From: an uncultured Chlamydiae bacterium
GTDB lineage: Bacteria > Chlamydiota > Chlamydiia > Chlamydiales > SM23-39
DNA: 64,000 nt
NCBI GenBank assembly: GCA_963828125.1
Contig: CAWHDP010000002.1
Span: forward strand, 1,720,394 to 1,784,393
Reading direction: 5' to 3'
Shown: positions 3,954 to 51,499 of the stretch, in pieces
Layout: every line of letters begins with the position of its first letter
Numbering within the stretch: position 1 is the stretch's first letter
Notes under the pieces: model-generated
The model's input: only the letters and a program-made list of their open reading frames with translations
Databases searched by the model: none
What the model was told of the DNA's origin: nothing
Program-made: the position numbers and the translations under genes

Positions 3954-4030
3954 CCACATGAGCATATCTTTAGATAGAACATAAAATCTTTATATGACAT
4001 CATGTCCACTTACTTTACAGGAGGTGGGCT

Positions 4031-4144
4031 ATGGGTAAATTTATAGGACTGAACGATCAAGAATGGGCTGTTGTAGAGCCATTCATACCCTATAAATGGG
4101 GGATTACTTTCAGAGGTAAGCAACCGCTTCATCCAATTTTGTAA
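4031..4144 (+). pseudogene. IS4/IS5-type transposase N-terminal remnant (37 codons)
   Basis: MGKFIGLNDQEWAVVEPFIPYKWGITFRGKQPLHPIL* resembles the L-x-D-x-x-W-x-x-I/V-x-P-x-x-P...RG+P N-terminus of IS5-like transposases. No DDE domain follows. The flanks are AT-rich. Confidence 0.45.
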
Positions 4145-8190: not shown

Positions 8191-8517
8191 TTATTGAACT
8201 CTTCGTTCGATGGGCCTTTGGGAAAAGCGCCAATCGGATTTCCCGATCTGTTCCGTGAGCAAAGTAAACAATCCGGCGCCCCCAAAAAAAGCGCTGAAGG
8301 TTTTATCCCCGCCGAAATAAGAGAGCACTCCGAATAGACCTAGGGCACAGCCTAATTTCGATATGTCGCTTAACTCATCGAAGATCTCATTTGATATGTC
8401 AGCCACCCCTTTTGCTAATTTGGTGAGGGTTGAACCCATACCTTTCAGCGGTGCATTCCATGTAAATGTACGCGTACAAAATTCACACTTTTGGGGTGGC
8501 TTCTGTATAATTTGCAT
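8191..8517 (-). CDS. small hypothetical Gly-rich membrane protein
   Basis: 108 aa. AGGAGA lies 6 nt before the ATG. Hydrophobic, Gly-rich core (GCALGLFGVLSYFGG...FFGGAGLF). The first ~12 codons lie inside a degenerate family-B repeat half. Confidence 0.3.
   Translation of the reverse strand: MQIIQKPPQKCEFCTRTFTWNAPLKGMGSTLTKLAKGVADISNEIFDELSDISKLGCALGLFGVLSYFGGDKTFSAFFGGAGLFTLLTEQIGKSDWRFSQRPIERRVQ
8478..8509. repeat. degenerate half copy of the family-B palindromic element (B6)
   Basis: aaattcacacttttggggtggcTTctgtata compared with the B arm aaatacacttttggggtggccgcagtata. Confidence 0.5.
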
Positions 8518-18598: not shown

Positions 18599-21409
18599 TT
18601 AAAAATCTTTGCCGATTTGCAGAGAGGCAAAGTAGGATTGCATTAAAGAGCCCCATTCTCCCTGCAGATCAATTGTGAAATAGGGAATCTGAGGATGAGA
18701 GGGGAGGAAAGAACAGCGGAACTCTACAGCGGCTAAATTTTGCATTAATAAAGAGCCTGTCGTAATGGAGAAAATCGACGCTGATCCGATGAATAGGGCC
18801 GATGGGGAGCTGCTATAGAAAGGCGTCTGGTTGATATAGCTCCCTTTTTCCATGAATACGAGATCCCCCCAGCTCATGGCAAGAGTTTCATAAAAACGGA
18901 CGCCCCCTTCGCTCCGGAGCAGGGAGGCGTACTGAGAGGGGACTTTGAGAGTCATTTCCGCAGATCCCTTTTCAAGGGATTTTTTTTGCCAATTATTCGC
19001 CCAATCGCACATCCCAAATGGCTGCACGCGTAAGCCTCCGCTTTTAGATAAAATATCTCCGCCGAATTCTGCATGCGGGGACAACACGTAGCCTGTTGAA
19101 TGGCACCGAGAGGTGACGCTTCCCGATGTTTTGCGGATGCTGCGCAATTGATATCCGCCTCCCCAGCAGGAGGCGTTGAAGTAGAGGAAATCGCCTTCCC
19201 AAGACCCATAGGCTACCCCTGCCTCTTGGTTGATATTGGCAGACCCCAGCCCTTTTTGGTAATGGACATGGTTATAGGCATAGCCAGCCCCGACGCCGAT
19301 GAGCCCCCCCTTGCCGATCCGGGCGTCAAATGCGGCCAATCCTCCGGCAATTTCATTGGTAAAACCGGGCGTTGACTCTTGTGTTTTTTCGAAAATAAAA
19401 TCGTTAAAAGGGGTGAACTGCACAGAATAAGGGGCTTGTTTTTGCGCGGGGGTTGAACAGAGCTGTTTACGCTGCGGACTTCCTTTGATTTGCTTCCCCG
19501 CATCGGCCATAAGGCTAACGGTAGCGTCATGTCCGGGGGTTTTGGGTATATTTCTAGAGGACAAAAAGGAGAGTTCGAGCGTTTTGGAAAGAGTCAAGAG
19601 AGAGTTGAAGACGCTATTGACCCAGACGCCGCCTATACCGGACGACCAACGGAGAGGGAGAACGGAAGGAGAGCTCCCTAAAGAGACATAGTAGACGTAG
19701 GGGCTGGGCGCAGGATCCCAGATCCAGCCTTGGCTTCCGTCTGCGCTAAAGGCGCTGCTTTCAGCGCTCATTAGGTAGGTGAGCTGACCGTTTTGAGGAT
19801 CTGTTGGAGACGAGGAAGAGAGATAGTAAATGTAGGGACTTGTCACATTCGTATCCCAGATCCAACCCTGGCTAGCGTCTTGACTAAACGCAACGCCCTC
19901 AGCATTCATCAAAGAGGTCATCTGAGCGGTTTGAGGCTCTGTGGGAGATGTGGCACTGAGATAGTAGATGTAAGGGCTCGGCACGTCCTCATCCCAGATC
20001 CAGCCTTGGCTTGCATTTGGGTTAAACTGGTGGCTTTGAGCATTCATTAGGTTAATGAGGTGAGTATTTTGGGGTTCCGTGGGAGACGTCGCGGAGAAGT
20101 AGTAGATCGAGGGGTTCATGACGCCATAATCCCAGATCCAGCCCTGGCTCGCATCTTGGCTAAATGAGTTCGCTTCTGCATTGATCAGATGGGTCAGCTG
20201 AACGCTCTCAGGGTCTGTTGGAGATGAGGAAGAAAAGAAATAGATGTAGGGTTCTGGTAGGCCTCCGTCCCAGATCCAGCCCTGGCTGGCGTCTTCACTA
20301 AACGCGGAATAGTTTGCATACATCAGATGGGTGAGCTGGGTATCTTGAGGGGCTGTTGGGGATGCGGAAGAGAGGTAGTAGATGTAGGGATGCGTTACGA
20401 TCGGATCCCAGATCCATCCCTGGCTTGCATCTTGGCTAAAATGGGCGCCCTCAGCATTTGTGAGATGGGTGAGCTGAGTATCTTGAGGCACGGTGGGAGA
20501 TGTCGAAGAGAGATAGTAGATATAAGGGCTCGCGAGGCCGACGTCCCAGATCCATCCCTGGCTTGCATCTTGGCTAAAATGGAAGCCGTTCGCATTGAGC
20601 ATGAGGTGGGTGAGTTGAGTATCTTGGGGTATGGTGGGAGATGTGGAAGAAAAATAGTAGATGTAGGGACTCACTACGTTATAATCCCAAATCCAGCCCT
20701 GGCTGGCATCTTCGCTAAACGAACTCCTCATAGCATTTTGTAGATGGGTGAGTTGAGCATCTTGAGGCATGGTGGGAGATATGGAAGAGAAATAGTAGAT
20801 GTAGGGACTCATTACGTTCTTATCCCAGATCCAGCCCTGCCCTCCATCTTGACCAAACAGGAAATTTTCAGCATTTTGTAGATGGGTGAGTTGAGTATTG
20901 AGAGGCATTGATGAGGCAGAGAGGTAATAGATGTAGGGGCTCACTTTATTGTAATCCCAGATCCAACCCTGACTTCCGTCTTGAGCAAACGCACTGATTT
21001 CAGCATTGGTTAGATTAGACAGCTCATTATATTGAGGATCGGTTGGAGATAAGGCAGAGAGATAATAGATGTAAGGGCTTGATACAGAGGCGTCCCAGAT
21101 CCAGCCCTGGCTCGCATCTTGAGCAAACGCGCTGACATAAGCATTCATGAGGTGGTCAAGCTGGATACTTTGAGGGTTTGTGGGAGATGCGGCAGAGAGG
21201 TAGTAGACGTAGGGGGCTGCTGCGCCGTAATCCCAGATCCAGCCCTGGCTTGCACCCTGGTTAAACGCGCTGATTCCAGCATTTGTTAGAGCGGTGAGCT
21301 GAACGTCTTGGGTCTCAATGACCGAGGCGTGGAGCCTAGAGAAACTGGTCAACAGGAGGAGGAGAGAGGGTAGATTGTTTAGGCAGAACGTTTTTTCAGG
21401 TCGGTGCAT
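18599..21409 (-). CDS. autotransporter outer membrane protein with a novel repeat passenger domain
   Basis: 936 aa. Signal peptide, 12 tandem 46-aa repeats, a Ser/Pro linker, and a ~300 aa C-terminal beta-barrel-like region ending ...ASLQIGKDF. Confidence 0.75.
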   Translation of the reverse strand: MHRPEKTFCLNNLPSLLLLLTSFSRLHASVIETQDVQLTALTNAGISAFNQGASQGWIWDYGAAAPYVYYLSAASPTNPQSIQLDHLMNAYVSAFAQDASQGWIWDASVSSPYIYYLSALSPTDPQYNELSNLTNAEISAFAQDGSQGWIWDYNKVSPYIYYLSASSMPLNTQLTHLQNAENFLFGQDGGQGWIWDKNVMSPYIYYFSSISPTMPQDAQLTHLQNAMRSSFSEDASQGWIWDYNVVSPYIYYFSSTSPTIPQDTQLTHLMLNANGFHFSQDASQGWIWDVGLASPYIYYLSSTSPTVPQDTQLTHLTNAEGAHFSQDASQGWIWDPIVTHPYIYYLSSASPTAPQDTQLTHLMYANYSAFSEDASQGWIWDGGLPEPYIYFFSSSSPTDPESVQLTHLINAEANSFSQDASQGWIWDYGVMNPSIYYFSATSPTEPQNTHLINLMNAQSHQFNPNASQGWIWDEDVPSPYIYYLSATSPTEPQTAQMTSLMNAEGVAFSQDASQGWIWDTNVTSPYIYYLSSSSPTDPQNGQLTYLMSAESSAFSADGSQGWIWDPAPSPYVYYVSLGSSPSVLPLRWSSGIGGVWVNSVFNSLLTLSKTLELSFLSSRNIPKTPGHDATVSLMADAGKQIKGSPQRKQLCSTPAQKQAPYSVQFTPFNDFIFEKTQESTPGFTNEIAGGLAAFDARIGKGGLIGVGAGYAYNHVHYQKGLGSANINQEAGVAYGSWEGDFLYFNASCWGGGYQLRSIRKTSGSVTSRCHSTGYVLSPHAEFGGDILSKSGGLRVQPFGMCDWANNWQKKSLEKGSAEMTLKVPSQYASLLRSEGGVRFYETLAMSWGDLVFMEKGSYINQTPFYSSSPSALFIGSASIFSITTGSLLMQNLAAVEFRCSFLPSHPQIPYFTIDLQGEWGSLMQSYFASLQIGKDF
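19670..21301 (-). repeat. 12 tandem ~138-bp coding repeats (46 aa: QLTHLxNAExxxFSQDASQGWIWDxxVxSPYIYYLSSTSPTxPQDT)
   Basis: QGWIWD recurs at aa 55, 101, 147, 191, 237, 284, 330, 376, 422, 468, 514 and 560 of the ORF. Confidence 0.9.
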
Positions 21410-21422
21410 GCTATTGTCCTCG

Positions 21423-21439
21423 GTGAGAAATGCGGGCTA
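21423..21439. repeat. solo terminus of family-A element (A6)
   Basis: gtgagaaatgcgggcta, identical to the right end of A1 and A3. Lies 14 nt upstream of the autotransporter ATG. Confidence 0.6.
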
Positions 21440-21501
21440 GAGAGACGCCCCTTTATTTTTTTCTTATAAGCGAGGATTTTGTTTCACACAATCTCAATTT
21501 C

Positions 21502-22801: not shown

Positions 22802-22825
22802 TAATGGGGCTATGATGATCCACCC

Positions 22826-22876
22826 GAGGGGTTAAAATCAAGGGCAAATACTCACCAGTCCCGCTTTTAACCCCTC
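22826..22876. repeat. inverted repeat (12-bp arms gaggggttaaaa / ttttaacccctc, 27-nt loop)
   Basis: Read directly. Lies between the tRNA-Arg 5' end and the stop of the 521-aa gene. Confidence 0.6.
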
Positions 22877-22906
22877 TCCCTTTTCAAGGGGCCAGTTCAA
22901 AGATTT

Positions 22907-24472
22907 TCACACATCTCGTTTTTGCTGCTTTTGCTGGTCAAATTGAGACTTAAAGGTTTCAAGTTCCCTCTGTAGCTTAGGATCGGAACCAGCGGCGGCG
23001 CGAAGCTCTACTAACCAAGGGTTGAGTAGGTCAACTTTTGCCAAATTGTTATACAGATTTATGAGGTGGCGGTAATCGCGATAAGTGTCAGGGAAGTCAG
23101 GGTTGTCCTGTGTTTGGATTGCTAGAAGAGCCCAATCAGTCAGAGTCTGGCTCCAATCAGGAAAAAGCTGACACAAAAGGGGGATTGTTTGGTGGGCGTT
23201 GTAATAACTAAATGCATCGGTCAATCCGTCTGCTTCAGTATAGGTCTTTAGCGACGCAAGAAGATCAAGATGCTCTTGACGCAAGAGATCAATTACCGCA
23301 CCTTTACACTGCATTTTCTCTAAAACTGCAAATAGATCCCGCAAACCCTGAAAATTACTACGATTTCCCATCGATCGAATGATGTGGACAATAACAGGAT
23401 AAAAAGCCTTTTCGTTGAAGTGGCGCAGGAGTCTCAAGGCTGTTTCAGAGTAATAATAATCAGATTCAAAAACCGCATTCGTGAGGGACTCAATGTCCCC
23501 TTGGAACCAAGACTGGATCGGATCGATGAGATTTTGAAAATCGGGTTCTTGAAGAAGGCGGATAACCTCCTCTGGATCCGAACCTGTGTAAGAAGAACAA
23601 ATGGTTTGGAAAATACGCAATTTGATCGTATCTGAATTGTCGATTTGAGTAAGAGCCGTGAACCAAGCTTGAAATGTTTTTTTCCCTTCAGGGTGTGATT
23701 TGACCACCCTAACAATCTCGCGAATAGGAACACTTTCGTGAAAAGGATGACTGTCTCTGTTCAGGAAATAACCGAAAAATTGGACTCCCATTTGTTTGAG
23801 CATTGATGTGATGACCGCATATTTTTCATCATTGTTATTTAAAAAAGGCTCCCTCCAAAGATTTTGTTCCAAGTCAGTAAATTTGCCATGCCGCGTGTTA
23901 TTGCAAGCGACTAAACGATCCGCTATGAAAGTCTGCCTTTGAGCGGAATTTTGAGGCAGATTCTCTGCAATCGCCGACTTAAGTGCCTTATTGGCTTCAT
24001 AACCACAACTTGTCCCAAATGCATTTAGGATAGGAATCCATTGATCTGCAGGGGCAATCTCAGAGAACTTTTTGATCACTGCGGAAAGCAATTGCATTTT
24101 TTGAAGGGTTTGATATAACAAGCTCGGCGCCCAAGTTGAATTGACTACTTCAAGAAGTGTTTCCGCAGCCAATTGAGTCCACGTATGTGGATCGAAGCAC
24201 ACATCATGAGAGACTCTACAAATATCCGTACCAAAATATATAAAAAGGCGGGGCCACATGGGTTTGGGCATTTGGCTAAAGAGGCGGGGTAACCAAATAG
24301 AAGGCTTTTCGCCAGTGCTTAGATCCTCCCGCAGGGATTGCGCGATCGGTACCGGGTCGAGGTACTGAGATGTTTCCGTAAAGTGTTGTTTGAGCCTATC
24401 GTAAGCCGATTGCTGCCGTTCGATGCTTTGCGATATAGATAAACCGCTATGAGTAATCGATGGAATATTCAT
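22907..24472 (-). CDS. hypothetical protein, AT-rich accessory gene (all-helical by composition)
   Basis: 521 aa. GGAG lies before the ATG. No recognisable domain. The C-terminus is Gln/Lys-rich. Confidence 0.55.
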   Translation of the reverse strand: MNIPSITHSGLSISQSIERQQSAYDRLKQHFTETSQYLDPVPIAQSLREDLSTGEKPSIWLPRLFSQMPKPMWPRLFIYFGTDICRVSHDVCFDPHTWTQLAAETLLEVVNSTWAPSLLYQTLQKMQLLSAVIKKFSEIAPADQWIPILNAFGTSCGYEANKALKSAIAENLPQNSAQRQTFIADRLVACNNTRHGKFTDLEQNLWREPFLNNNDEKYAVITSMLKQMGVQFFGYFLNRDSHPFHESVPIREIVRVVKSHPEGKKTFQAWFTALTQIDNSDTIKLRIFQTICSSYTGSDPEEVIRLLQEPDFQNLIDPIQSWFQGDIESLTNAVFESDYYYSETALRLLRHFNEKAFYPVIVHIIRSMGNRSNFQGLRDLFAVLEKMQCKGAVIDLLRQEHLDLLASLKTYTEADGLTDAFSYYNAHQTIPLLCQLFPDWSQTLTDWALLAIQTQDNPDFPDTYRDYRHLINLYNNLAKVDLLNPWLVELRAAAGSDPKLQRELETFKSQFDQQKQQKRDV

Positions 24473-24584
24473 GGTGTCTCCAGTTCAAAAACTTTCCAAA
24501 GAGGGACATTATGCCATAATAAGTCTGCAAAAGGCAAGCAATATAATATTTTTATCGGAACTCTAATGGTAGATATTCGCCATC

Positions 24585-24830
24585 TAGCCCGCATTTCTCA
24601 CACAGACGCGGAAAATCTGCTCAATCTGTCACGCCATCTTTCGCCAATCGCTCGTCGCTAATAGGAAGAGCCCTATTATACTGCGGCCACCCCAAAAGTG
24701 TATTTGGGCAGCGTCAAAGCTGCCCAAATACACTTTTGGGGTGGCCGCAGTATAGCTTCCTCGCGATTTGCAAAATCTGGCGTAACATCTTGAGCGCCTT
24801 TTCTCGCGTCTGTGTGAGAAATGCGGGCTA
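24585..24830. mobile_element. family-A MITE-like palindromic element, full copy (A1) carrying a nested family-B element
   Basis: Perfect 26-bp terminal inverted repeats, TAgcccgcatttctcacacagacgcg ... cgcgtctgtgtgagaaatgcgggcTA. The internal arms are imperfectly complementary. No coding capacity. Confidence 0.85.
24677..24754. mobile_element. family-B palindromic element (B1) nested in A1, with a TA duplication
   Basis: TA|tactgcggccaccccaaaagtgtatttgggcagc-gtcaaa-gctgcccaaatacacttttggggtggccgcagta|TA. The arms are a perfect 34 bp. The corresponding site in A3 (45973-45984, cctatTAgctcc) is empty. Confidence 0.85.
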
Positions 24831-24996
24831 GGGGAAGAGGAGCTTGACTGATTCGTAAGCCCAATGGAGCTTTTTTTTCCGTGCAAGTAAATCCTTTTCA
24901 AGGGCCCTCTTCATGGTGCTCTCTAACTGTCTTCATTTTTGCAGAAATTGCCATAAATAAACGCAAATATCTAATAATAAGGCATTTGCGATTTCG

Positions 24997-28958: not shown

Positions 28959-29363
28959 ATGAATTTTGTGAAAGTTGTTGTTACTTCTACCTTCAAGAAG
29001 GTTGATGCGGTTATTGAACCCTATGTTGCGAGACTGCAGGGTCAGCCAATGTGGATGCAGGTGGCGGTGCCGCTGACCCTTGAAGCAATGATTGTAGGGT
29101 CTATAGGGGTATGCCGCAATATTTGGGATAACGTCGTGTCAGAGATGTCAAATCCACTTTTAAAGTACTCATCCGGATTTTTGATGGTCTCCTGCGGAGT
29201 CATGGTCGGAGGCCTTCTAGCAATGTGTTTAAAGAGTGTAGTGGAGAGGCCATGGCAAGATGCTGCAAGAAGAGCCGTTGAACCAATGCGGCAGGTGATA
29301 GCCCAGATGCGGAACAGGGTAATGGAGATGGGTACTCATGCTCAAGGAGCTCCCGCAGCCTAA
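28959..29363 (+). CDS. hypothetical membrane protein (two hydrophobic segments)
   Basis: 134 aa with an AT-rich upstream region. Its 3' end (gctcaaggagctcccgcagccTAA) resembles that of the next ORF. Followed by a copy of the groEL terminator. Confidence 0.45.
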   Translation: MNFVKVVVTSTFKKVDAVIEPYVARLQGQPMWMQVAVPLTLEAMIVGSIGVCRNIWDNVVSEMSNPLLKYSSGFLMVSCGVMVGGLLAMCLKSVVERPWQDAARRAVEPMRQVIAQMRNRVMEMGTHAQGAPAA

Positions 29364-29365
29364 GC

Positions 29366-29409
29366 AGAGGCGGGGGATTTCTCCCCCGCCTCTCTTTACA
29401 TCATGCCGC
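29366..29409. repeat. 44-bp direct repeat, copy 1 (duplicated groEL 3' end plus terminator hairpin)
   Basis: agaggcgggggatttctcccccgcctctctttacatcatgccgc is identical to 30317-30360. Confidence 0.9.
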
Positions 29410-29499
29410 TGTAGTTCTGTAGATAAAACATTTAACATTGCTTCAAATACAGATAATTTGTACAATTTGGCGGAATAAATATAAATCTGGAGTGTAAAT

Positions 29500-30309
29500 A
29501 TGATTCAAATTAGAAAGGAGCCTGTACCTGTATATAACGGGCCGGGCCTCAGCGTTAGTCGGACGGAGGAAAGGGATAAAGAACGCGTTAGTGTGATTGT
29601 CAGCAAGAACGCTTTCTCTGATGCTATCCAACAGATTGCCCGGGAGGCGCCTACGTCTGCCGGAATATGTGAAAAACTCCGCAACTGGTTCTGCCCCCGT
29701 CCCCCAATCAAGGAGGGGTTCTTCTATATGCAGGATGGAATAAAAGTCCAGACGCTGGAGATCGTTAGAGGAGAGGAGAAAAAAAATCAAGAAAAAGGGA
29801 TCTATATTGAGGTCATACGGCCAAAACATCCAAGCGGACAGTGCGCTCGATTCTTTTTGAAGTCGATCAGGCCACTCGCTTTTATCTCTTCTATGGCGAT
29901 GACCGCAAATACAACCGAAATGGGTAGAACATTTCTTAGGAATACAGTCGCAGCCGTTTCACAAGCCGCCACAACTGTTTTTAGTGCTTTAAAAGAAAAA
30001 ACGGTTGAACTCTATCCGCAAGCTGTTCAAGTGGCTCAGAGTGTTCCTCCACTAGCCACCGTTTTAGCCATGACTTGGGCCGTTCCTGCCTTTCTAAACG
30101 CATGCCTAGCAGGGAAAAAATTGCAGGCACTCACCATAGCTGGTCTGGGGCTTGCGGTTGGGGTCGTCCCTTATCTCACGGCTCAAACGGGAAGCAGAGA
30201 CGCCTCTTCCGCTGCTCCAAGTAGCCCGTTCAGCGCATTCTCTCAAGGCACTTGTCCCGCTGCTCCAAATAGCCCGTTCAGCGCTCAAGGCACTTGTCCT
30301 GCGACGTAA
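29500..30309 (+). CDS. putative inclusion-membrane (Inc)-like protein with a bilobed hydrophobic domain
   Basis: 269 aa. PLATVLAMTWAVPAFLNACLAG-KKLQ-ALTIAGLGLAVGVVPYLTA gives two TM segments with a 4-aa loop. The C-terminus carries a 48/42-bp tandem repeat (30211-30300). Confidence 0.5.
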   Translation: MIQIRKEPVPVYNGPGLSVSRTEERDKERVSVIVSKNAFSDAIQQIAREAPTSAGICEKLRNWFCPRPPIKEGFFYMQDGIKVQTLEIVRGEEKKNQEKGIYIEVIRPKHPSGQCARFFLKSIRPLAFISSMAMTANTTEMGRTFLRNTVAAVSQAATTVFSALKEKTVELYPQAVQVAQSVPPLATVLAMTWAVPAFLNACLAGKKLQALTIAGLGLAVGVVPYLTAQTGSRDASSAAPSSPFSAFSQGTCPAAPNSPFSAQGTCPAT

Positions 30310-30316
30310 ATGAAGA

Positions 30317-30344
30317 AGAGGCGGGGGATTTCTCCCCCGCCTCT
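30317..30344. terminator. bidirectional hairpin terminator shared by groEL (-) and the Inc-like gene (+)
   Basis: agaggcggggga-tttc-tcccccgcctct: 12-bp GC-rich stem with a 4-nt loop, immediately after both stop codons. Confidence 0.7.
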
Positions 30345-30346
30345 CT

Positions 30347-32307
<1,961 letters not shown>

Positions 32308-36600: not shown

Positions 36601-37221
36601 CCCCAAGAAAAACATCCGGTCAATGAGGCGGTCAATCACTTAACCACCTATTTGGATCAGATGGATCTCACTGCTGAGCAAATGGGGATCTGGTCGGGGA
36701 GCTGCGCGAACTACGCCTACTGGTGGAGGCGGATGAAAAATGATCGGGATCCGTCAAAAATCGTCGGACAAGATAATTTTTTCCGTTATGTGCCGAGGAA
36801 AAACATGGTCCTTCGGTTGGGGGCCAAATCGATCCCTCTCGACGCGTTAAGGGTTTGCGCAGCGGTGCTCACGTGCGGCGCAAAAGTGGAGATCAGCTGG
36901 TCTCCGAATAGTCCCCATAGGCCCGAGTTCGATTGGCTGGAGCTGATCCCGACATTGCCCGTCGTCGACGAGACGGAGGAGCGGTTTCTGGAGAGGGTGA
37001 AAACAGGGAACATCGAGCGGGTTCGATTGGTTGAGCCTCCATCGGAAGCTTTGATCGAGGCGGCAGCCGAATCTCCGGTACACGTGATTCACGCTCCTGT
37101 CCTCATTAACGGAAGGCTCGAGCTGCTCCATTACTTGAGAGAGGCGTCAATCAGCATCGATTATCATCGGTACGGGAATTTGGGATTGAGGGAAGGGGAG
37201 CTCAGAAAACCCATTTTCTAG
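33649..37221 (+). CDS. putA: bifunctional proline dehydrogenase / 1-pyrroline-5-carboxylate dehydrogenase
   Basis: 1190 aa. N-terminal PRODH barrel region and a C-terminal ALDH domain (FPCAIPAGGIAAALAAGNCVLFKPS, ETGGKNAMII, GQKCSA). The TAG stop is the first 3 nt of repeat A2. Confidence 0.85.
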   Translation: MTDYLDETIEILDSVKGKPQSMAERKRLAIELAALMLHEAGRTMTSEERSVQQQLARLMRDPVGKAFTTAMTDECFRSSSHKRVADQMIYLLRQLGIPHYLDWKKRAELFAFRSVGAPIAQFLVPLAMRALRKQTRRVILQAEAGPLEKHLKERRSEGVRLNLNHLGAAILSEAEAKKKLHTYFAHLKNPNIDYLSVKISTTFSQINWLAFDATVTEIGERLRLLYRATMDSNPHKFINLDMEEYRDLDLTVTAFKQVLDEPEFQHYSAGIVLQAYLPDSHHFQKDLTEWAKKRVKNGGAPIKIRIVKGANLAMEQFEASVKGWPQAPYTTKVEVDANYKRMVHYGCIPENARAVRLGVASHNLFDIAFAMLLRLENQVEPYVGFEMLEGMADHIRRVVQRLTGDMLLYCPVANREEFQHAIGYLVRRLDENTGPENFLRHAFGLKPGTDAWENQTALFSQSCDEMNTVSQQPRRTQNRLIHPPAYDPKLPFENESDTDFALPQNRKWAEGIALHWRQEQPKPIPLVIGGKELWANQEGVGHTPNDVKLLYIYAKAHPHHIDEALRCAKEYEKTWGGTTVQHRSQLLARVAQKMRERRGELIGAMMVDGGKIVSEADPEVSEAIDFAEYYRRQMEKMALMKDVRWEPVGSAVVISPWNFPCAIPAGGIAAALAAGNCVLFKPSSDTVLVAWHLVNAFWDAGVPKEALQFVPCSGEGAGNDLIRDERVNLVTLTGGTATAKTFLKMRPDLHLAAETGGKNAMIITALSDRDLAIKDLLQSAFGHVGQKCSAASLAILEAEVYDDPHFLRTLRDAAASLKVGLSWDLSTKINPLIHEPRGDLKRALTTLEEGEDWLLEPKQDSHHPALWSPGIKTGVRPGGFTHMTELFGPVLGLMRADNLHHAIELANAVPYGLTAGLHSLDGREQVKWMEEIEAGNLYVNRAITGAIVRRQPFGGCKASSIGGGSKAGGPNYLCAFMRAKQIGMPQEKHPVNEAVNHLTTYLDQMDLTAEQMGIWSGSCANYAYWWRRMKNDRDPSKIVGQDNFFRYVPRKNMVLRLGAKSIPLDALRVCAAVLTCGAKVEISWSPNSPHRPEFDWLELIPTLPVVDETEERFLERVKTGNIERVRLVEPPSEALIEAAAESPVHVIHAPVLINGRLELLHYLREASISIDYHRYGNLGLREGELRKPIF

Positions 37222-37286
37222 CCCGCATTTCTCACACAGACGCGAGAAAAGGGGCTCAAGATGTTACGCCATCTTTCGCCAATCGC
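37219..37286. mobile_element. family-A element, single-arm/hybrid copy (A2)
   Basis: TAgcccgcatttctcacacagacgcgagaaaaggggctcaagatgttacgccatctttcgccaatcgc. It fills nearly all of the 73-bp gap between the convergent putA and the 301-aa gene. Confidence 0.75.
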
Positions 37287-37294
37287 AAGGTCGA

Positions 37295-43627: not shown

Positions 43628-43658
43628 CCTCGATTTTGTACAACTGGACATTGGCTGT

Positions 43659-44946: not shown

Positions 44947-45888
44947 ATGGGTCCGCGAGCAGGTGTTTTTTGCCACAATGGGTTAGGAGACGGGGTCAAT
45001 TGCCTGGTTCTTTCGAATCAGTTACATTTAAACGGCTGGCGGGTGGACACCTACCAAAATGTCATTGGATCAATGCAGAACTGGTTTCCCCACCTGAAAG
45101 TGGAGCCTTACCCCAGCCCTGACGAACTCCCCCGCATCCTGGGCAGCTACGACTGGTTTTTTGTCGTCCAAAACGATACAGATCCCTTTATCCTTCAGCT
45201 CATTCAGGAAGGGAAGAGGCGATTTCCGGATTTGCTAAAAGTGATCTATCTCTATCCCTCTCCCAACATTGTGAACGAACCTTATTACACCGACTGCTTG
45301 ACCGATCCCACCCTGTCGATTGCCGAAAACATGCGCCTTTTCGCCGAGAAGATTCTCCATCTGCCCAAGATCACCCGGAGCAACGGATTCATCCCCCCCG
45401 CCGGCCTCACATTCCGCAAATACCTCAAACGGATCGCCATCCACCCGACGAGCGGACGGGAGACCCGCAACTGGCCTAAAGAGAAATTCCTCCAGTTCGC
45501 AGGCCATTTGCGGCAATGGGGATACGATCCGGTCTTCATTCCCGGCAAAAAAGAGGGGTGGGAAGGGATCGGCTTTGAAATTGCCCTCTTCCCTACCTTG
45601 GATCTTTTGGCACGCTACCTTTACGAATCGGGATTTTTAGTCGGAAACGACTCCGGCCTTGGCCACCTCGCCTCAGCGATCGGTATCCCAACCCTTACAT
45701 TCTGCCGCAGGAAAAAACTGGCCAATATGTGGGCCCCCAGCTTCCAGAGAGGGGTCGTCGTGACCCCCAGCTCTTGGATTCCCAACATCCGGGGATTGCG
45801 ATTGAGAGACCGACACTGGCAAAAATTTATCTCGGTCGCCAAAGCCAAACGGGCGTTCAACAAACTCGTCCATTTGCCGCTGCACTAA
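44947..45888 (+). CDS. glycosyltransferase family 9 (heptosyltransferase-like)
   Basis: 313 aa from MGPRAGVFCHNGLGDGV. Contains GNDSGLGHLASAIGIPT. The TAA stop lies in the left terminus of A3. Confidence 0.75.
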   Translation: MGPRAGVFCHNGLGDGVNCLVLSNQLHLNGWRVDTYQNVIGSMQNWFPHLKVEPYPSPDELPRILGSYDWFFVVQNDTDPFILQLIQEGKRRFPDLLKVIYLYPSPNIVNEPYYTDCLTDPTLSIAENMRLFAEKILHLPKITRSNGFIPPAGLTFRKYLKRIAIHPTSGRETRNWPKEKFLQFAGHLRQWGYDPVFIPGKKEGWEGIGFEIALFPTLDLLARYLYESGFLVGNDSGLGHLASAIGIPTLTFCRRKKLANMWAPSFQRGVVVTPSSWIPNIRGLRLRDRHWQKFISVAKAKRAFNKLVHLPLH

Positions 45889-46012
45889 CCCGCATTTCTC
45901 ACACATCCGCGGAAAATCTGCTCAATCTGTCACGCCATCTTTCGCCAATCGCTCGTCGCTAATAGGACTCTTCCTATTAGCTCCCTCGCGTCTGTGTGAG
46001 AAATGCGGGCTA
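45886..46012. mobile_element. family-A MITE-like element (A3), without the B insertion
   Basis: TAacccgcatttctcacacatccgcg...ctaataggactcttcctattag...cgcgtctgtgtgagaaatgcgggcTA. Its two ends overlap the stop codons of the convergent GT9 (+) and doxX (-) genes. Confidence 0.85.
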
Positions 46013-46402
46013 ATTCATCCCGAAACGGCCCGAGCCCATGGCGAGGAGGAGGAATAGACCGCCGATCACCGCGACCTCTTTCATGAAGGTTCTCCGCTCC
46101 ACTTCGTACTCATTCCCCTCTTTCGTCCAAAAGTCGTGGAACTTCAGCACGGAAGCCGTCGCTACTACAATCAAAATCAGAGCGCCGATGTGGGCGTGCC
46201 AACCAAATAATACGGAAAGTCCCCCGATGATTTTGAGAGCCACTGCTATAGGCAGAACAATTTGCGCGCTCGGCACAGCTTTTGATTGCATGTAGTGCAT
46301 AGATTGGCTCCAGTGTCTTATTTTCTCGAAAGCGCCCCAGAGGAAAATACCCCCGATCAGCACTCTTCCGATTAAATCAAATAAATTCATCATAAATTCC
46401 AT
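46010..46402 (-). CDS. doxX: DoxX family membrane protein
   Basis: 130 aa with 4 TM segments. LIGRVLIGGIFLWGAFEKI is typical of DoxX. Confidence 0.65.
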   Translation of the reverse strand: MEFMMNLFDLIGRVLIGGIFLWGAFEKIRHWSQSMHYMQSKAVPSAQIVLPIAVALKIIGGLSVLFGWHAHIGALILIVVATASVLKFHDFWTKEGNEYEVERRTFMKEVAVIGGLFLLLAMGSGRFGMN

Positions 46403-46497: not shown

Positions 46498-47661
46498 ATG
46501 TACAATTTGATTGTGATGGGAGGGGGTGCCGCCGGCATGTTTGCCGCGATCAGCGCCAAATCTGCAAACCCGGCAGCCAAGGTGCTCCTTTTAGAAAAAA
46601 GCGGGGTACTCCTCTCTAAAGTGCGCGTTTCAGGCGGCGGCAGGTGCAATGTGACCCACGCCTGCTTCGACCCCGCTGCGCTCATCTGCCACTATCCCCG
46701 CGGCGGCCCCGAGCTTCGCGGCCCCTTCCACCGCTTTCAGCCCCGCGACACGATCGAGTGGTTCGAGGCGCGAGGGGTTTCCCTCAAAGCCGAGCCTGAC
46801 GGCAGGGTATTCCCCGTTACCGACAGCTCGGAGACGATTATCGATTGTCTCCTCTCGGAAGCGAAGAGCCTTGGCGTCGAAATCCTCACCCGTCAACGGA
46901 TAGACCTCATCGTCAAGATCTCCGAAGGCTTTGCCGTCGGCCCTTATCGATCGAGAAAACTCCTCCTCGCCACTGGCAGCGCCCCCCAAGGGCACGCGTG
47001 GGCAGCTCAGCTCGGACACACGATTCAAACACTGGTCCCCTCCCTTTTTACCTTTAACGTCCCCACCTCACCCCTCAAAAATCTCAGCGGCATCTCGGTC
47101 AACCCAGTCGAGCTCAAAATACGAGGCCTAACCCAAAAAGGGGCCCTCCTGATCACCCACTTTGGCTTTAGCGGCCCCGCTGCCCTTAAACTCTCTGCCT
47201 GGGGAGCCCCCGTTTTGCATCAATGCGATTACCGCGCCCCTCTAGCCATTAACTGGCTCCCCGAGCTCAACCCAACCCAAACCCTCGCCATCCTCCAAGC
47301 TCTCAAGAAATCGGCCCCCCAGCGACCCCTTTGCACAGAAAACCCCTTTAAGCTCTCCAAAAACCTCTGGAAAGCTCTACTCAATGATGAAAAACGGCTC
47401 AACGACTTCTCGAACAAAGACCTTCAGACACTCGTTCAGAAACTGCATGAAGATTTTTACCAAATAGACGGCAAGACGACCCACAAAGAGGAGTTTGTCA
47501 CCTGCGGAGGCGTAACGTTAAAAGAGGTCGACTTCAAAACCATGGAGAGCAAAGTGTCCCCTGGTTTATACTTTGCTGGAGAAATTTTAGATATTGACGG
47601 AGTGACCGGCGGATTTAATTTTCAAGCCAGTTGGACAACCGGATTTATTGCTGGCGTTTAA
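46498..47661 (+). CDS. HI0933/BaiN-family FAD-dependent flavoprotein
   Basis: 387 aa. Motifs MYNLIVMGGGAAGMFAAI, VSGGGRCNVT and a C-terminal GGFNFQASWTTG. Confidence 0.85.
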   Translation: MYNLIVMGGGAAGMFAAISAKSANPAAKVLLLEKSGVLLSKVRVSGGGRCNVTHACFDPAALICHYPRGGPELRGPFHRFQPRDTIEWFEARGVSLKAEPDGRVFPVTDSSETIIDCLLSEAKSLGVEILTRQRIDLIVKISEGFAVGPYRSRKLLLATGSAPQGHAWAAQLGHTIQTLVPSLFTFNVPTSPLKNLSGISVNPVELKIRGLTQKGALLITHFGFSGPAALKLSAWGAPVLHQCDYRAPLAINWLPELNPTQTLAILQALKKSAPQRPLCTENPFKLSKNLWKALLNDEKRLNDFSNKDLQTLVQKLHEDFYQIDGKTTHKEEFVTCGGVTLKEVDFKTMESKVSPGLYFAGEILDIDGVTGGFNFQASWTTGFIAGV

Positions 47662-49450
47662 GCTGGAGCGCAAGGCATTGCGCTATTGTCTTTCTAAAGT
47701 CATCCACAGTATCGTTTTGGCCTCTACGCGCTAAAGCGGTTTGAAGGATCAATAGCCGATCTTCCTCCGCACATTTATTGTCTGTTAGATATCGATCCGC
47801 GCATTCATCCCACGAGGTCTCTATAACAAGTAACATATCTTCGCGGTTTTTTATTTGCTCCAGTCGCCGATCAAGATCAGGAATTAAAATTTTCAAACCA
47901 TCAAGGATGTGCAAAGCCTCTTGTTCTGTAAGTGCTAGGGTTGGGCATATAGCCATTAACCCATCTAATACTAATGTCTTTTTATAATGAACAAAAATAC
48001 CATCAATAAATTCGATGCCGCTTAATTGAAGTTTCTTTGATTTTTTCCATTCTTCAAATTTTTGTGTAAAATCTTGTGCGTACTCAGCCAGACAAAAACA
48101 AACTTTCCTTGCTATATATAAGAATGTTTCTTTATTAGATCCAATCGACCTTAATGCCATGCATATTTCGAATGCATATGCATATTGTTCGGGGCTAAAA
48201 TTCCAATTTTTGAAAATCTCTTTGCTAAATACTTGGTTGCAGTGCTGGAGTAAATTCACATTTTTCGTTGGTTGATATAATCTAGCTTCTTGCAGGAAGA
48301 GTTCTTTATTTAAACACAAAAATCCATCTATCTGATGTAGAGTGTTTTCACTGTCATCAATCGATCCAAGTATCGATAAATATTTAAATAAATTGGATTT
48401 ATTTGCAGTTTGATATTTCGGGTCATTCCAAAGTGTTAATAGGCGGAGTACTGTGTTCGTTATTATATCGCAAGACGTGGATTCATATTGGTTAGTTTCT
48501 ATTGTGTTTTCAATCCATTGTCTTGACAAATGAAATTTTATCTTAAGGGTTGGAGCGTCTTTTAAATTATTGTCTAAATCATTGATCGCTAATTTCAATA
48601 GATTGATTTTTTCAGCGTCGAATCGATAGGTTCCAACAGCCCAGCCTATCTCGCTTGTTTCGTAAGGAATGCAATTTAATAATTCTTGTGTTATTTCCAG
48701 TCCCGCCTTAAGGGAACTACTGGCCAAATCTAAATATATGGGAAAGATCCGCTCGATAAAATCTGGAGTCCATAGATGTCCAAAAATCTTTCTCATGCTA
48801 GTTAAAATTTCCGCTTCGAACAGGTATGTTTCAGGGGATACAGACTCAGTGAGTCTTTGCTGTCGAGGCTTAGGAAATACGGGAACCATCTCTCTCAACC
48901 AAAGACTGATCAATTGATCAGAAGATACTTGGGAATAGCCATCCCGTAACAGTTCTTGATCGAGGTTGTCTCTGATGTTTTCTAGCTGCTCGCATATCAA
49001 GTGTTTGTATCCTACCTTGTCTTGCAACATCAATGGATTGCCTTTGGCAGCCACAAATAGGTAATATCGCATTAAAATGTGAAAATTCGGGTTTGCCTGT
49101 TCAGCTGAAATAGCCTGCCGTATTTGTAGCTGGAACTTATTTTTTTGTAGTTGCAGACGGCTTTCTGGTGTTGACACATTATTGATTATAATTTTTGTGG
49201 CAGCATTATATAATTTTTGTTGTTTGCCAGTGAGCCGTGCAGACGGCGATATGGATTTCCATGCAGATTTCAACCCATCCAGCGCCGTTGATTTCAGGTA
49301 TGATTTCAGGCACATATACAACCATCCAAATATTGGGATCACTACGAACCAACGGGATACGGTATGTTGCTGCACAACCCATATCGCATCCTTAGTTATT
49401 GGAAATGTTTTTTGATTAGTAGGCGCTTGGTTAAAATTTTGCACGTTCAT
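47645..49450 (-). CDS. hypothetical protein, member 1 of a tandem paralogue pair (AT-rich)
   Basis: 601 aa. Collinear similarity to the next ORF, e.g. IWVVQQHTVSRWFVVIPIFGWLYMCLKSYLKSTAL vs IWLVQQHTVSKWLAVIPIFGWLYMLVKSCLKSTAL, and LWTPDFIERIFPIYLDLA in both. Confidence 0.6.
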   Translation of the reverse strand: MNVQNFNQAPTNQKTFPITKDAIWVVQQHTVSRWFVVIPIFGWLYMCLKSYLKSTALDGLKSAWKSISPSARLTGKQQKLYNAATKIIINNVSTPESRLQLQKNKFQLQIRQAISAEQANPNFHILMRYYLFVAAKGNPLMLQDKVGYKHLICEQLENIRDNLDQELLRDGYSQVSSDQLISLWLREMVPVFPKPRQQRLTESVSPETYLFEAEILTSMRKIFGHLWTPDFIERIFPIYLDLASSSLKAGLEITQELLNCIPYETSEIGWAVGTYRFDAEKINLLKLAINDLDNNLKDAPTLKIKFHLSRQWIENTIETNQYESTSCDIITNTVLRLLTLWNDPKYQTANKSNLFKYLSILGSIDDSENTLHQIDGFLCLNKELFLQEARLYQPTKNVNLLQHCNQVFSKEIFKNWNFSPEQYAYAFEICMALRSIGSNKETFLYIARKVCFCLAEYAQDFTQKFEEWKKSKKLQLSGIEFIDGIFVHYKKTLVLDGLMAICPTLALTEQEALHILDGLKILIPDLDRRLEQIKNREDMLLVIETSWDECADRYLTDNKCAEEDRLLILQTALARRGQNDTVDDFRKTIAQCLALQLKRQQ

Positions 49451-49552: not shown

Positions 49553-51499
49553 TTAATGTTGTCGATGTTTAAATGGAGTCCGATCTAATCGTTCGATCGC
49601 CTGGAAAGTACGATCGAAGGGCAACCCCGGCAGCAAGAAATCTGCTAGAAATTGGCTGCCTAGTTGTATCTTTGGATCCCATTTTTTAAATTGTTCGCGG
49701 AATTCATTTTCGTTCTGTAATATGCATAGATACACTTGGTCTATTATAACTTTAAAAGCATCTGCATTATCGCCTTTTGTTCTAAGCGCTAAAGCAGTTT
49801 GAATTATCCATATATTGTCTGTTCTGAACAATGCATCATCCGTTAAATACTTCCCGCATTGATAAAAACAGGCTGTTATAAAATCTGGAATATTTGCGAT
49901 GTTCTCTTTTTCGTTAAGTTGCTCGTAAAAATCGGGAATTAAAACTGTAAGCCCATCAAAGATATGCAAAGCCGCTTCTGGTGTGCGCCCTATCTGTAAC
50001 TCGTTAATCATCAACTCTTGCAGTTGCAATTTTCTTGTATTCTCCATAAAACTGTCAATAAAATGGATTCCACTTGATTTTATTTTCCCCTTTAATTTTT
50101 CCCATTTTTTAAATTCTACTTCAAATTCTTGTTCGCAGTCTTCAAGACAACGAACAACTCTGTGCTCTATCCTCCAAAACATGTCTGCATCAGATCCAAT
50201 GGGTCTTAATGCCATGCATATTTTGAATAAACGTTTTTTGTCTGCAAAATCCACATCTTTGAGAATTTTATCGCTAAATACTTGGTTGCAGTACTCGAAG
50301 AAGGTGACTTCTGCATCGCGCTTGTAGGTTCGATCTTCTCCTTGGAAAAGATCTTGGTCTAACGACAAGAACCCATCTATCTGATGTAGAGTTTGTTCGC
50401 TGTCGTCAATCGACCCAATTTTCAATAAATATTTAAATAAATCTGATTTGTTTTCAGTTTGATATTTTGGATCATTCCAAAGTGTTAATAGGCGGATTAC
50501 GGTGTTCATTATTACGTCGCAAGACGTGGATCCATATTGGCCGGGGATTGTGTTTTTAATCCATTCTTCTGGCGAATTAAACCGCTTGGTAAGTGTCTGA
50601 TCTTTCTGTAATGTGTCATTGAGATTAGCGCACGCTTGTTTCAATTTGTTTAGTAGATCGACTTGGATCCGATGTTCCCCGAGAATCTCGTGTAATTTTG
50701 CGTTGTCATACGGAAGACAATCTAACAAGGCTTGTGTTATTTCCAGTCCCGCCTCAAGGGGATAAGTGGCCAAATCTAAATATATGGGAAAGATCCGCTC
50801 GATAAAATCTGGAGTCCACAGATCGCCAAAAATAGTTCCCATCCTCGTTAAAATGTCCGCTTCGAGGAGATAGGTTCGGTGATCTACACATTCCAGGTTG
50901 TGCTTTTGAGCTTTAGGAAATGCGGGAAGCATCTCTCTCAGCCAGAGATCAATCAATTGCTCAGAGAATCGTTGGGAATAGCCGCTTTGCGAAAGTTCCT
51001 TACCGTATGATGCCATCACATTCATTAGCTCCTTGTATACATTGTCCTCTATCATCTTGTCTGGGATCGAGTTTATATGTCCTCCATCGGAAAGGAATAG
51101 GTAGTATCGCGTTAAAATGTGAAAATTCGGCTTTTGTTGTTCAAGTACAAAAGCTTGTTGTATTTCTCGCTGAAACCTATTTTTTTGTACTTGCAGGCGG
51201 CTTTCTGGCGTTGACAAATGGTTGAGCAGCACGTCCGTGGCGGCCCCATACAATCGTTGTTGCTCAGGATTGAGTTTTGCAGACGGTGCGACTGTGATCA
51301 CCGCATTTTTCAACCGATTCAGCGCAGTTGATTTCAGGCATGATTTGACCAGCATATACAACCATCCGAATATGGGGATAACTGCTAACCATTTAGATAC
51401 GGTATGTTGCTGCACAAGCCATATGTCATCCGTCTCAATTGAGAACTCATTCTGAATAATGGGCGCATTATTTTGGTTAAAATCGTTTGGCCGAATCAT
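49553..51499 (-). CDS. hypothetical protein, member 2 of the tandem paralogue pair (AT-rich)
   Basis: 648 aa. See the previous entry. The upstream regions of both genes also share blocks (actattata..., taa[c/t]ggcaaatat). Confidence 0.6.
   Translation of the reverse strand: MIRPNDFNQNNAPIIQNEFSIETDDIWLVQQHTVSKWLAVIPIFGWLYMLVKSCLKSTALNRLKNAVITVAPSAKLNPEQQRLYGAATDVLLNHLSTPESRLQVQKNRFQREIQQAFVLEQQKPNFHILTRYYLFLSDGGHINSIPDKMIEDNVYKELMNVMASYGKELSQSGYSQRFSEQLIDLWLREMLPAFPKAQKHNLECVDHRTYLLEADILTRMGTIFGDLWTPDFIERIFPIYLDLATYPLEAGLEITQALLDCLPYDNAKLHEILGEHRIQVDLLNKLKQACANLNDTLQKDQTLTKRFNSPEEWIKNTIPGQYGSTSCDVIMNTVIRLLTLWNDPKYQTENKSDLFKYLLKIGSIDDSEQTLHQIDGFLSLDQDLFQGEDRTYKRDAEVTFFEYCNQVFSDKILKDVDFADKKRLFKICMALRPIGSDADMFWRIEHRVVRCLEDCEQEFEVEFKKWEKLKGKIKSSGIHFIDSFMENTRKLQLQELMINELQIGRTPEAALHIFDGLTVLIPDFYEQLNEKENIANIPDFITACFYQCGKYLTDDALFRTDNIWIIQTALALRTKGDNADAFKVIIDQVYLCILQNENEFREQFKKWDPKIQLGSQFLADFLLPGLPFDRTFQAIERLDRTPFKHRQH

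Follow-up and report, generated by a model that had tools for sequence, protein, structure and literature searches.

Results

Three Families of Palindromic Repeats

The window analyzed here, a 64,000-nt stretch of the genome of an uncultured chlamydial bacterium, carries short palindromic repeats of three families (A, B, and C) placed among genes that include an autotransporter gene, tRNA-Arg(ACG), putA, neighboring GT9 and DoxX genes, and an ankyrin/SET gene (Table 1). The family A terminus is CCCGCATTTCTCACA. A 24-mer of this end (GCCCGCATTTCTCACACAGACGCG) matched the window seven times at up to three mismatches, against none expected from shuffled sequence, and the family A 17-mer core matched nine times against 0.13 expected by chance. 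The family B end (TACTGCGGCCACCCCAAA) gave seven matches (0.03 expected), and family C gave seven end matches (0.22 expected). The first-pass annotation had described multicopy, noncoding elements bounded by terminal inverted repeats (TIRs); that description is borne out both by repeat numbers far above chance and by relatives that lack the elements at orthologous sites. The three families are real small noncoding palindromic repeats, and they look like relics of transposons.

Table 1. Positions of the family A, B, and C repeats, in window coordinates unless another contig is given
Element	Coordinates	With flanks	Strand	Features
A1, family A MITE	24588-24827 (240 bp)	24584-24831	.	CTAG on each side; canonical form split by B1
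A2, half element	37222-37290	37218-37290	.	one TIR plus ~55 bp of interior
A3, family A	45889-46009 (121 bp)	45885-46013	.	CTAA/CTAA; uninterrupted CCTAT-TA-GCTCC
A4, 56-bp deletion derivative	56442-56497	56438-56501	.	CTAG/CTCG flanks
A5, 34-bp remnant	60103-60136	60099-60140	.	TTAG/TTAG flanks
A6, solo 17-bp end plus CTAG	21420-21436	21420-21440	.	end match
B1	24679-24752	24677-24754	.	near apex of A1 hairpin; TA on both sides
B2, 241-bp form	62136-62376		.	exact 18-nt ends; TA on the right only
B3, 44-bp form	63660-63703		.	TA on both sides; abuts C2
B4, 24-bp collapsed form	59535-59558		.	TA on both sides; 8 bp from C4
B5, truncated B end	60304-60324		.	TA on the left; 46 bp from C1
B6, degenerate solo right arm	8478-8507	8478-8509	.	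followed by TA
C1, longest C form (78 bp)	60371-60448		.	30-nt arms, 97% complementary
C2, 24-bp perfect palindrome	63706-63729		.	end match
C3, 17-bp collapsed form	55476-55492		.	end match
C4, one degenerate C end	59511-59526		.	end match
C5, solo degenerate C end	43643-43657		.	end match
C6, 36 bp	L127 7711-7746 (same genome, ~1.1 kb upstream of the window)			GGCC-ATTTAAAT-GGCC

The putA product is 100% identical on JBAVKL010000062.1 (GCA_049688295.1) and on two Logan contigs, as is the DNA; the nearest putA relatives show 77–82% identity, and the named matches further down the list are chlamydial MAGs. Two short-read contigs from this genome are interrupted within A1/B1, one ending at 24653 and the other starting at 24712, and they confirm only the right B1/A1 junction, the left one being without independent coverage. 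Other contigs break inside C1 (60396) and at 4002/4083, within an IS5-like remnant. These breaks indicate that the repeats are multicopy in the genome and no artifact of a single assembly.

Other repeated DNA in the window includes a 54-bp direct repeat (29362-29415 and 30313-30366; 94% identical) that brackets a 269-aa gene (29500-30309) and includes a GC-rich, terminator-like hairpin (GCAGAGGCGGGGGA...TCCCCCGCCTCT). Adjacent paralogous genes of 601 and 648 aa (47645-49450 and 49553-51499; ~71% DNA identity) have no Pfam or NCBIfam match.

Family A Copies at Gene Ends and Their Decay

Family A comprises four two-ended copies (A1, A3, A4, and A5) and two half elements (A2 and A6); the earlier count of six holds, although it listed one solo end where we count two half elements. 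A1 with its flanks reads catCTAG-CCCGCATTTCTCACACAGACGCGG...CGCGTCTGTGTGAGAAATGCGGG-CTAGggg, with 32-nt arms that are 94% complementary; the chlamydial subterminal sequence is TTCCGGGAAAATCTGAAC.... A2 and the right part of A1 share 92% identity. Several copies sit directly on gene ends: The TAG stop of putA falls in the CTAG flank of A2, the left CTAA of A3 holds the TAA stop of GT9 and its right CTAA the TAG stop of DoxX (minus strand), and A4 encloses the stop and last ~7 codons of the ankyrin/SET gene (56475-58082, minus strand). A5 and A6 lie 14 and 10 bp upstream of start codons, those of a 167-aa gene and of the 936-aa autotransporter gene, respectively. The latter gene (18599-21409), which codes for an autotransporter-domain protein, contains long internal tandem repeats (19681-21315; copies 68–76% identical).

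The shorter forms had been proposed to be deletions between short direct repeats, and alignment of the copies agrees: removing what lies between two CTCGCG from A1 yields A3, removing what lies between two TCTGT from A3 yields A4, and A5 has a deletion between two GAGAAA. Not one of the window copies is intact, each being interrupted, internally deleted between 5–6-bp direct repeats, or reduced to one end. In sum of features—six noncoding copies of 34–240 bp with TIRs and a 4-bp duplication—family A has the makeup of a MITE.

Comparison with relatives identifies A3 as an insertion. In two of them (L117 and L118), the gene order HI0933-like, DoxX, GT9 is kept, with DoxX and GT9 in convergent orientation, 39–57 bp of overlap, and nothing between; in the window, the 121-bp A3 plus CTAA stands between GT9 and DoxX. 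The presence/absence differences typical of MITEs are thus seen for A3, missing from L117 and L118, and for B1, missing from A3 and from canonical A copies in other MAGs. The distance from tRNA-Arg(ACG) to a 296–299-aa gene is 34 bp in one relative (L114) and 32 bp in L118, against 2.2 kb in the window. This 2.2-kb lineage-specific segment (22802-24996), bounded by the tRNA and the conserved 299-aa gene, consists of a 521-aa ORF with no family match and A1. No A, B, or C ends were found in ~86 kb of relatives' DNA.

Canonical family A copies occur in three other chlamydial MAGs. They are 163 bp long (~165 bp), with perfect ends and an interior 80–85% similar to the window copies, and a canonical copy folds into one long hairpin (−94.9 kcal/mol, z −14.6); A1 is this canonical form plus B1. 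A copy in the Chlamydiia MAG contig JACRBF010000036.1 (L081, 5274-5547) has CTAA/CTAA flanks and a nested insert of another kind, ~110 bp long and consisting of three small GC-rich hairpins, which implies that nesting into the A hairpin arose independently in another chlamydial genome. A copy in the Chlamydiales MAG contig DATIHO010000128.1 (L049, 1536-1690) has the outer 9 nt of its left end replaced and lies between the copies of a 13-bp direct repeat, CTAATCCAGCTTT.

The first-pass annotation had seen no matching transposase in the window, and our searches concur. Tblastn with IS1380 transposases found no match in the window and ~100 kb of chlamydial loci, no transposase is listed in the Pfam tables of called genes (window 4–60 kb plus 10 kb upstream), and NCBIfam found no match among unannotated ORFs. 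Since no window copy is intact and ~74 kb contain no transposase, the A copies of the window look like relics of a past invasion, judging from the window and the 10 kb upstream.

Ends Shared with IS1380-Family Elements

We scanned one genome per GTDB species (596 Gb) with an 18-mer of the family A end, GCCCGCATTTCTCACACA, for which ~17 chance matches are expected by our own arithmetic. It was present at at least 100 loci in at least eight phyla. The matches listed fall in Gemmatimonadota, Planctomycetota, Acidobacteriota, Verrucomicrobiota, Alpha-, Beta-, and Gammaproteobacteria, Actinomycetota, and Chlamydiota, with the last represented among them by three MAGs (JACRBF01, DATIHO01, and JACVQJ01). 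Family A is peculiar neither to this genome nor to Chlamydiae. Among the matches listed, TA precedes 83 of 102 A ends (CTAG 66, TTAG 14), and beyond CACACA the sequences split at once into 51 unrelated interiors. Two Hyphomicrobium MAGs carry the 18-mer without TA flanks, apparently at the same locus (L014, 3440-3457; L030, 329-346) just upstream of an ORF start; the match may be due to chance or mark an old solo end.

Paired ends among the matches listed form two size classes, 1674–1715 bp and 56–614 bp; many of the short elements, unrelated to one another, measure 120–430 bp and are spread over at least eight phyla. The long class codes for proteins of 459–465 aa, and two of these (from loci L011 and L056) scored 387 and 399 bits against the NCBIfam model NF033539, "IS1380 family transposase" (cut-off 180), and matched PF13701 with E values of 1e-141 and 1e-151. 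Full-length IS1380-family elements with A ends (1.66–1.72 kb) occur in Gemmatimonadota, in Proteobacteria, and on plasmids of cultured bacteria. An annotated IS1380-family element on Pseudomonas putida pKF715A has CTAG|CCCGCATTTCTCACAG at both ends, 1655 bp apart; this element and one on Bradyrhizobium pCB82_1 share CTAG|CCCGCATTT(C/T)TCACA at both ends. The family A terminus matches the pKF715A element exactly at both ends and the pCB82_1 element with one mismatch at one end.

The IS1380 family includes IS1380A, ISEcp1, ISPme1, and IS1247, and its traits in the ISfinder family summary are a 4-bp duplication and an element starting with CC. The original description of IS1380, by Takemura in 1991, reportedly gave inverted repeats of 15 bp and duplication of 4 bp. 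In agreement with it, the family prototype, IS1380A, as carried by a plasmid of Acetobacter pasteurianus, measures 1665 bp, has TCGA on both sides, and ends in CGCGGAAATCTCACA and CGCTGATTTCTCACA, giving the end pattern CGC(G/T)GA(A/T)ATCTCACA; its right end and the A end have the inner part TTTCTCACA in common.

Because the same ends bound insertion sequences with IS1380-family transposases, we assign family A, on the evidence of its sequence, to IS1380-derived MITEs and not to IS630/Tc1-mariner. The chlamydial sequences examined yielded no autonomous partner, and a search of viral contigs with A ends returned nothing relevant. Our literature search found no description of IS1380-derived MITEs or of CTAG as an IS1380 target. 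The invariance of the IS1380-type end across phyla, and the many independent MITE families bearing it, are the most interesting by-product of this analysis.

A Four-Base-Pair Duplication at Family A Insertions

The TA beside the A ends had been taken as a sign of IS630/Tc1-mariner-type transposition with TA duplication. To examine the flanks, we set the element start at CCCGC and compared the 4 bp outside it on both sides. The flanking tetranucleotides were identical in 28 of 42 elements (among the matches listed, plus window copies): 23 CTAG/CTAG, three TTAG/TTAG, and two CTAA/CTAA pairs (window A3 and L081b); window A5, beyond this set, is also TTAG/TTAG. CTAG is a palindrome, and most copies therefore fail to discriminate a 2-bp from a 4-bp duplication; the case for 4 bp is made by six non-palindromic pairs. 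Where the right tetranucleotide starts with T, the left one does likewise in seven of eight cases. The 14 nonmatching pairs of the 42 are taken to be decay.

In a TA-only model, the base that adjoins TA externally on one side would belong to the element, be fixed (G or C), and not covary with the opposite flank, whereas covariation of the outer bases on both sides points to duplication of all four bases, YTAR. The predicted target of family A is accordingly YTAR, with CTAG preferred and a 4-bp duplication; the TA that had been noted is present but forms the middle of this duplication, and the 2-bp TA duplication of IS630/Tc1-mariner elements is not what family A displays.

These flanks bear on the view that all three families are IS630/Tc1-mariner-type MITEs duplicating TA. 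IS630 inserts at CTAG and duplicates TA, which is established knowledge; TA adjoins most A and B ends, and the filled and empty sites of B1 differ by one TA. Against this, the outer bases of the A tetranucleotide covary (TTAG/TTAG, CTAA/CTAA), and the full-length elements with A ends code for IS1380, not IS630, transposases, which refutes the view for family A; family C lacks TA flanks, and no parent of family B was recovered (below). For the three families together we regard it as very improbable.

Stable Hairpins Without Fixed Positions

All elements form very stable hairpins when folded (z −9.5 to −15.6), and several lie at the 3' ends of genes, as conserved structural RNAs or terminators at fixed positions might. 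We find that explanation barely credible: No element has an Rfam match, and the relatives lack the elements at orthologous positions. The A ends are common to transposase-bearing elements, target duplications are present, and copies also lie at gene 5' ends and inside a coding region. On both counts, Rfam and orthologous sites, the comparison speaks for insertion.

Family B and Its Nested Copy

Family B has six copies, as had been claimed, ranging from 21 to 241 bp, with TIRs and TA at 9 of 10 ends, the makeup expected of MITEs. B1 with its TA flanks is a 78-nt perfect hairpin with 36-nt arms and a 6-nt loop (TA-TACTGCGGCCACCCCAAAAGTG...CCGCAGTA-TA). The right ~40 nt of B2 resemble a B1 arm; its interior is non-palindromic and may represent native promoter DNA with a partial B end on each side. 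B3 is without the stretch between two CCCAAA.

The nesting of B in A1, with an uninterrupted paralogous site in A3, was described correctly: A1 reads CCTAT-TA-[B]-TA-GCTTCC, and A3 reads CCTAT-TA-GCTCC. The single TA of A3 completes a 10-bp central stem, which makes TA the simplest duplication for B, and the canonical A copies of other MAGs, being without B, indicate that the B-less form is ancestral. A 2-bp TA duplication by family B is thus plausible from the sequences compared; the one empty site, paralogous rather than orthologous, is consistent with it and not decisive, and TA could instead be part of the B ends.

No B end was found in other chlamydial loci. The B 18-mer had 10 matches in 241 million metagenome records, none with TA flanks or partner ends; one of them (L113), inspected for ORFs, lies within a coding region, and we judge the 10 to be chance matches. 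Searches of 72,556 plasmids with B arms and of 2.9 million viral contigs with B ends returned nothing relevant. A B parent was thus found neither in the window nor in these metagenome records, plasmids, and viral contigs, which also weighs against an IS630 origin for all three families.

The known TA duplicators are IS630-type and IS5/IS427-type enzymes. Family B alone could be a TA-duplicating MITE of either type, with its transposase elsewhere in the genome or since lost, and we put this at little short of an even chance. IS427-group elements make 2-bp duplications (Table 2 of PMC3281130). The TA flanks, the nested insertion with its single-TA paralogous site, and the variable-length forms with common 18-nt ends all fit, and the same genome holds a multicopy IS5-like (DUF4096) remnant (3957-4134). 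Against it stand the ends of that remnant, which are unlike B, the lack of any B relative in the metagenome, plasmid, and viral-contig searches, and the palindromic character of most B copies throughout, which brings them nearer to hairpin repeats than to MITEs with TIRs and an interior.

The remnant is a 178-bp repeat that encodes the start of an IS5-type transposase, ~35 codons of it (MGKFIGLNDQEWAVVEPFIP..., DUF4096 E 0.08), and an identical copy adjoins a trp operon in an ENA contig (L126, ~921-1098). We considered its 37-aa ORF (4031-4144; weak DUF4096, IS5-type N terminus) as a clue to the B parent and rejected it, the repeat ends being unlike B or C. The hairpin CCGTAAAAAATACGG occurs twice (60216-60231 and 63634-63649), ~70 bp before a B copy at 60.2 kb and ~10 bp before one at 63.6 kb. 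Just past B3/C2, at 63770-63867, lie fragments 97% and 88% identical to 56905-56940 and 58044-58092 in the ankyrin/SET region.

Family C and Its Association with Family B

Four C copies had been listed; the family is real, with five copies inside the window and one more shortly beyond its edge. This sixth copy, C6, immediately precedes the ribosome-binding site of recA and lies 15 bp upstream of the start codon. The flanks of the window copies and of C6 showed no consistent duplication and no TA. The C1, C6, and C2 forms are best read, from their alignment, as progressive collapse of a long palindrome, and insertion and deletion are indistinguishable from the forms seen. An alternative in which C1 is a C palindrome with an IS1380-like insert and a GGCC duplication was rejected, deletion being the simpler account of the GGCC-bounded C6. 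C arms matched nothing relevant among 72,556 plasmids.

B and C stand side by side three times, at 59.5, 60.3, and 63.7 kb, which could reflect a nesting preference or a BIME-like mosaic organization. The second option belongs to a broader alternative, that B and C are REP-/BIME-like units spread by a RAYT-type tyrosine transposase, recombination, or replication slippage and not cut-and-paste MITEs. Their form as near-perfect palindromes of 24–78 bp, the three clusters resembling mosaic BIMEs, their location at gene ends, and the lack of a duplication in C are in keeping with it. REPs typically have a GTAG or CGTC head (PMC3733652), and inspection found neither in B or C; the gene tables of ~74 kb contain no Y1/RAYT gene, and B is consistently flanked by TA, all of which speaks against such units. 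We consider this origin unlikely.

A bolder proposal, decidedly doubtful in our estimate, is that B and C are lineage-restricted palindromic DNA moved by an unrecognized enzyme or hairpin-dependent mechanism, landing by preference in or beside other hairpin repeats, as B does near the apex of the A hairpin and beside C three times, and that the invariant IS1380-type end marks an undescribed cross-phylum superfamily of independently born MITEs.

Discussion

Taken together, the window very probably holds three non-autonomous palindromic families: a decaying IS1380-derived MITE (A), a lineage-restricted repeat that fits TA duplication (B), and a third palindromic repeat (C). As judged from the family, an IS1380-family DDE transposase acting in trans would move A, cutting the target with a 4-bp stagger at YTAR, preferably CTAG, and so producing the 4-bp duplication. 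Because YTAR has TAA or TAG on both strands, such insertions could fall on stop codons without gene loss; insertions lie exactly on stop codons at putA and at the GT9/DoxX junction. Family A is decaying in this genome, by interruption, by deletion between 5–6-bp direct repeats, or by reduction to one end. B presumably entered A1 after the spread of A, and some transposase would duplicate the 2-bp TA at its insertions.

Insertion sequences are rare in the phylum, with 5.7% of chlamydial genomes containing one (PMC9208149). The first-pass annotation knew of no such non-autonomous elements in Chlamydiae, and our literature search likewise found no description of MITEs there. The relics show that small mobile repeats of at least three families have colonized environmental chlamydiae. 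These repeats now lie on stop codons, at the 3' ends of genes, and directly before start codons, and they break short-read assemblies of the host genome. The link between family A and IS1380 corrects the inference that TA flanks mean mariner/IS630. It also documents a YTAR-targeting, 4-bp-duplicating IS1380 branch whose 15–17-bp end is invariant across phyla and is the seed of many unrelated MITEs.

Bacterial MITEs are well known, and RUP of Streptococcus pneumoniae, NEMIS/Correia, ERIC, Nezha, and MITEPye1 resemble the elements described here in small size, TIRs matching those of an insertion sequence, and target duplications, as well as in intergenic location near gene ends, folding into long stem-loops, and deletion variants; the difference lies in the parent family, here IS1380, and in a host phylum poor in insertion sequences. 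With the IS630/Tc1-mariner MITEs among them, such as RUP and Nezha, the window elements share TA beside the ends and, for B, an apparent TA duplication; A differs in its IS1380 ends and in failing the 2-bp test, and the searches revealed neither a parent nor a transposase of IS630 type for B. B and C are, like REPs, BIMEs, and REPINs, short palindromes in intergenic mosaic clusters; they differ in having no GTAG/CGTC head and no RAYT gene nearby (~74 kb), and B in having TA flanks and a 241-bp form. Compared with the IS1380 family itself, A is short (34–240 bp), carries no transposase gene, and has an interior unrelated to the full-length elements. It shares with the pKF715A and Bradyrhizobium elements a terminal repeat that starts with CC as well as the CTAG flanks, and its 4-bp duplication is paralleled by the duplicated palindromic tetranucleotide TCGA of IS1380A.
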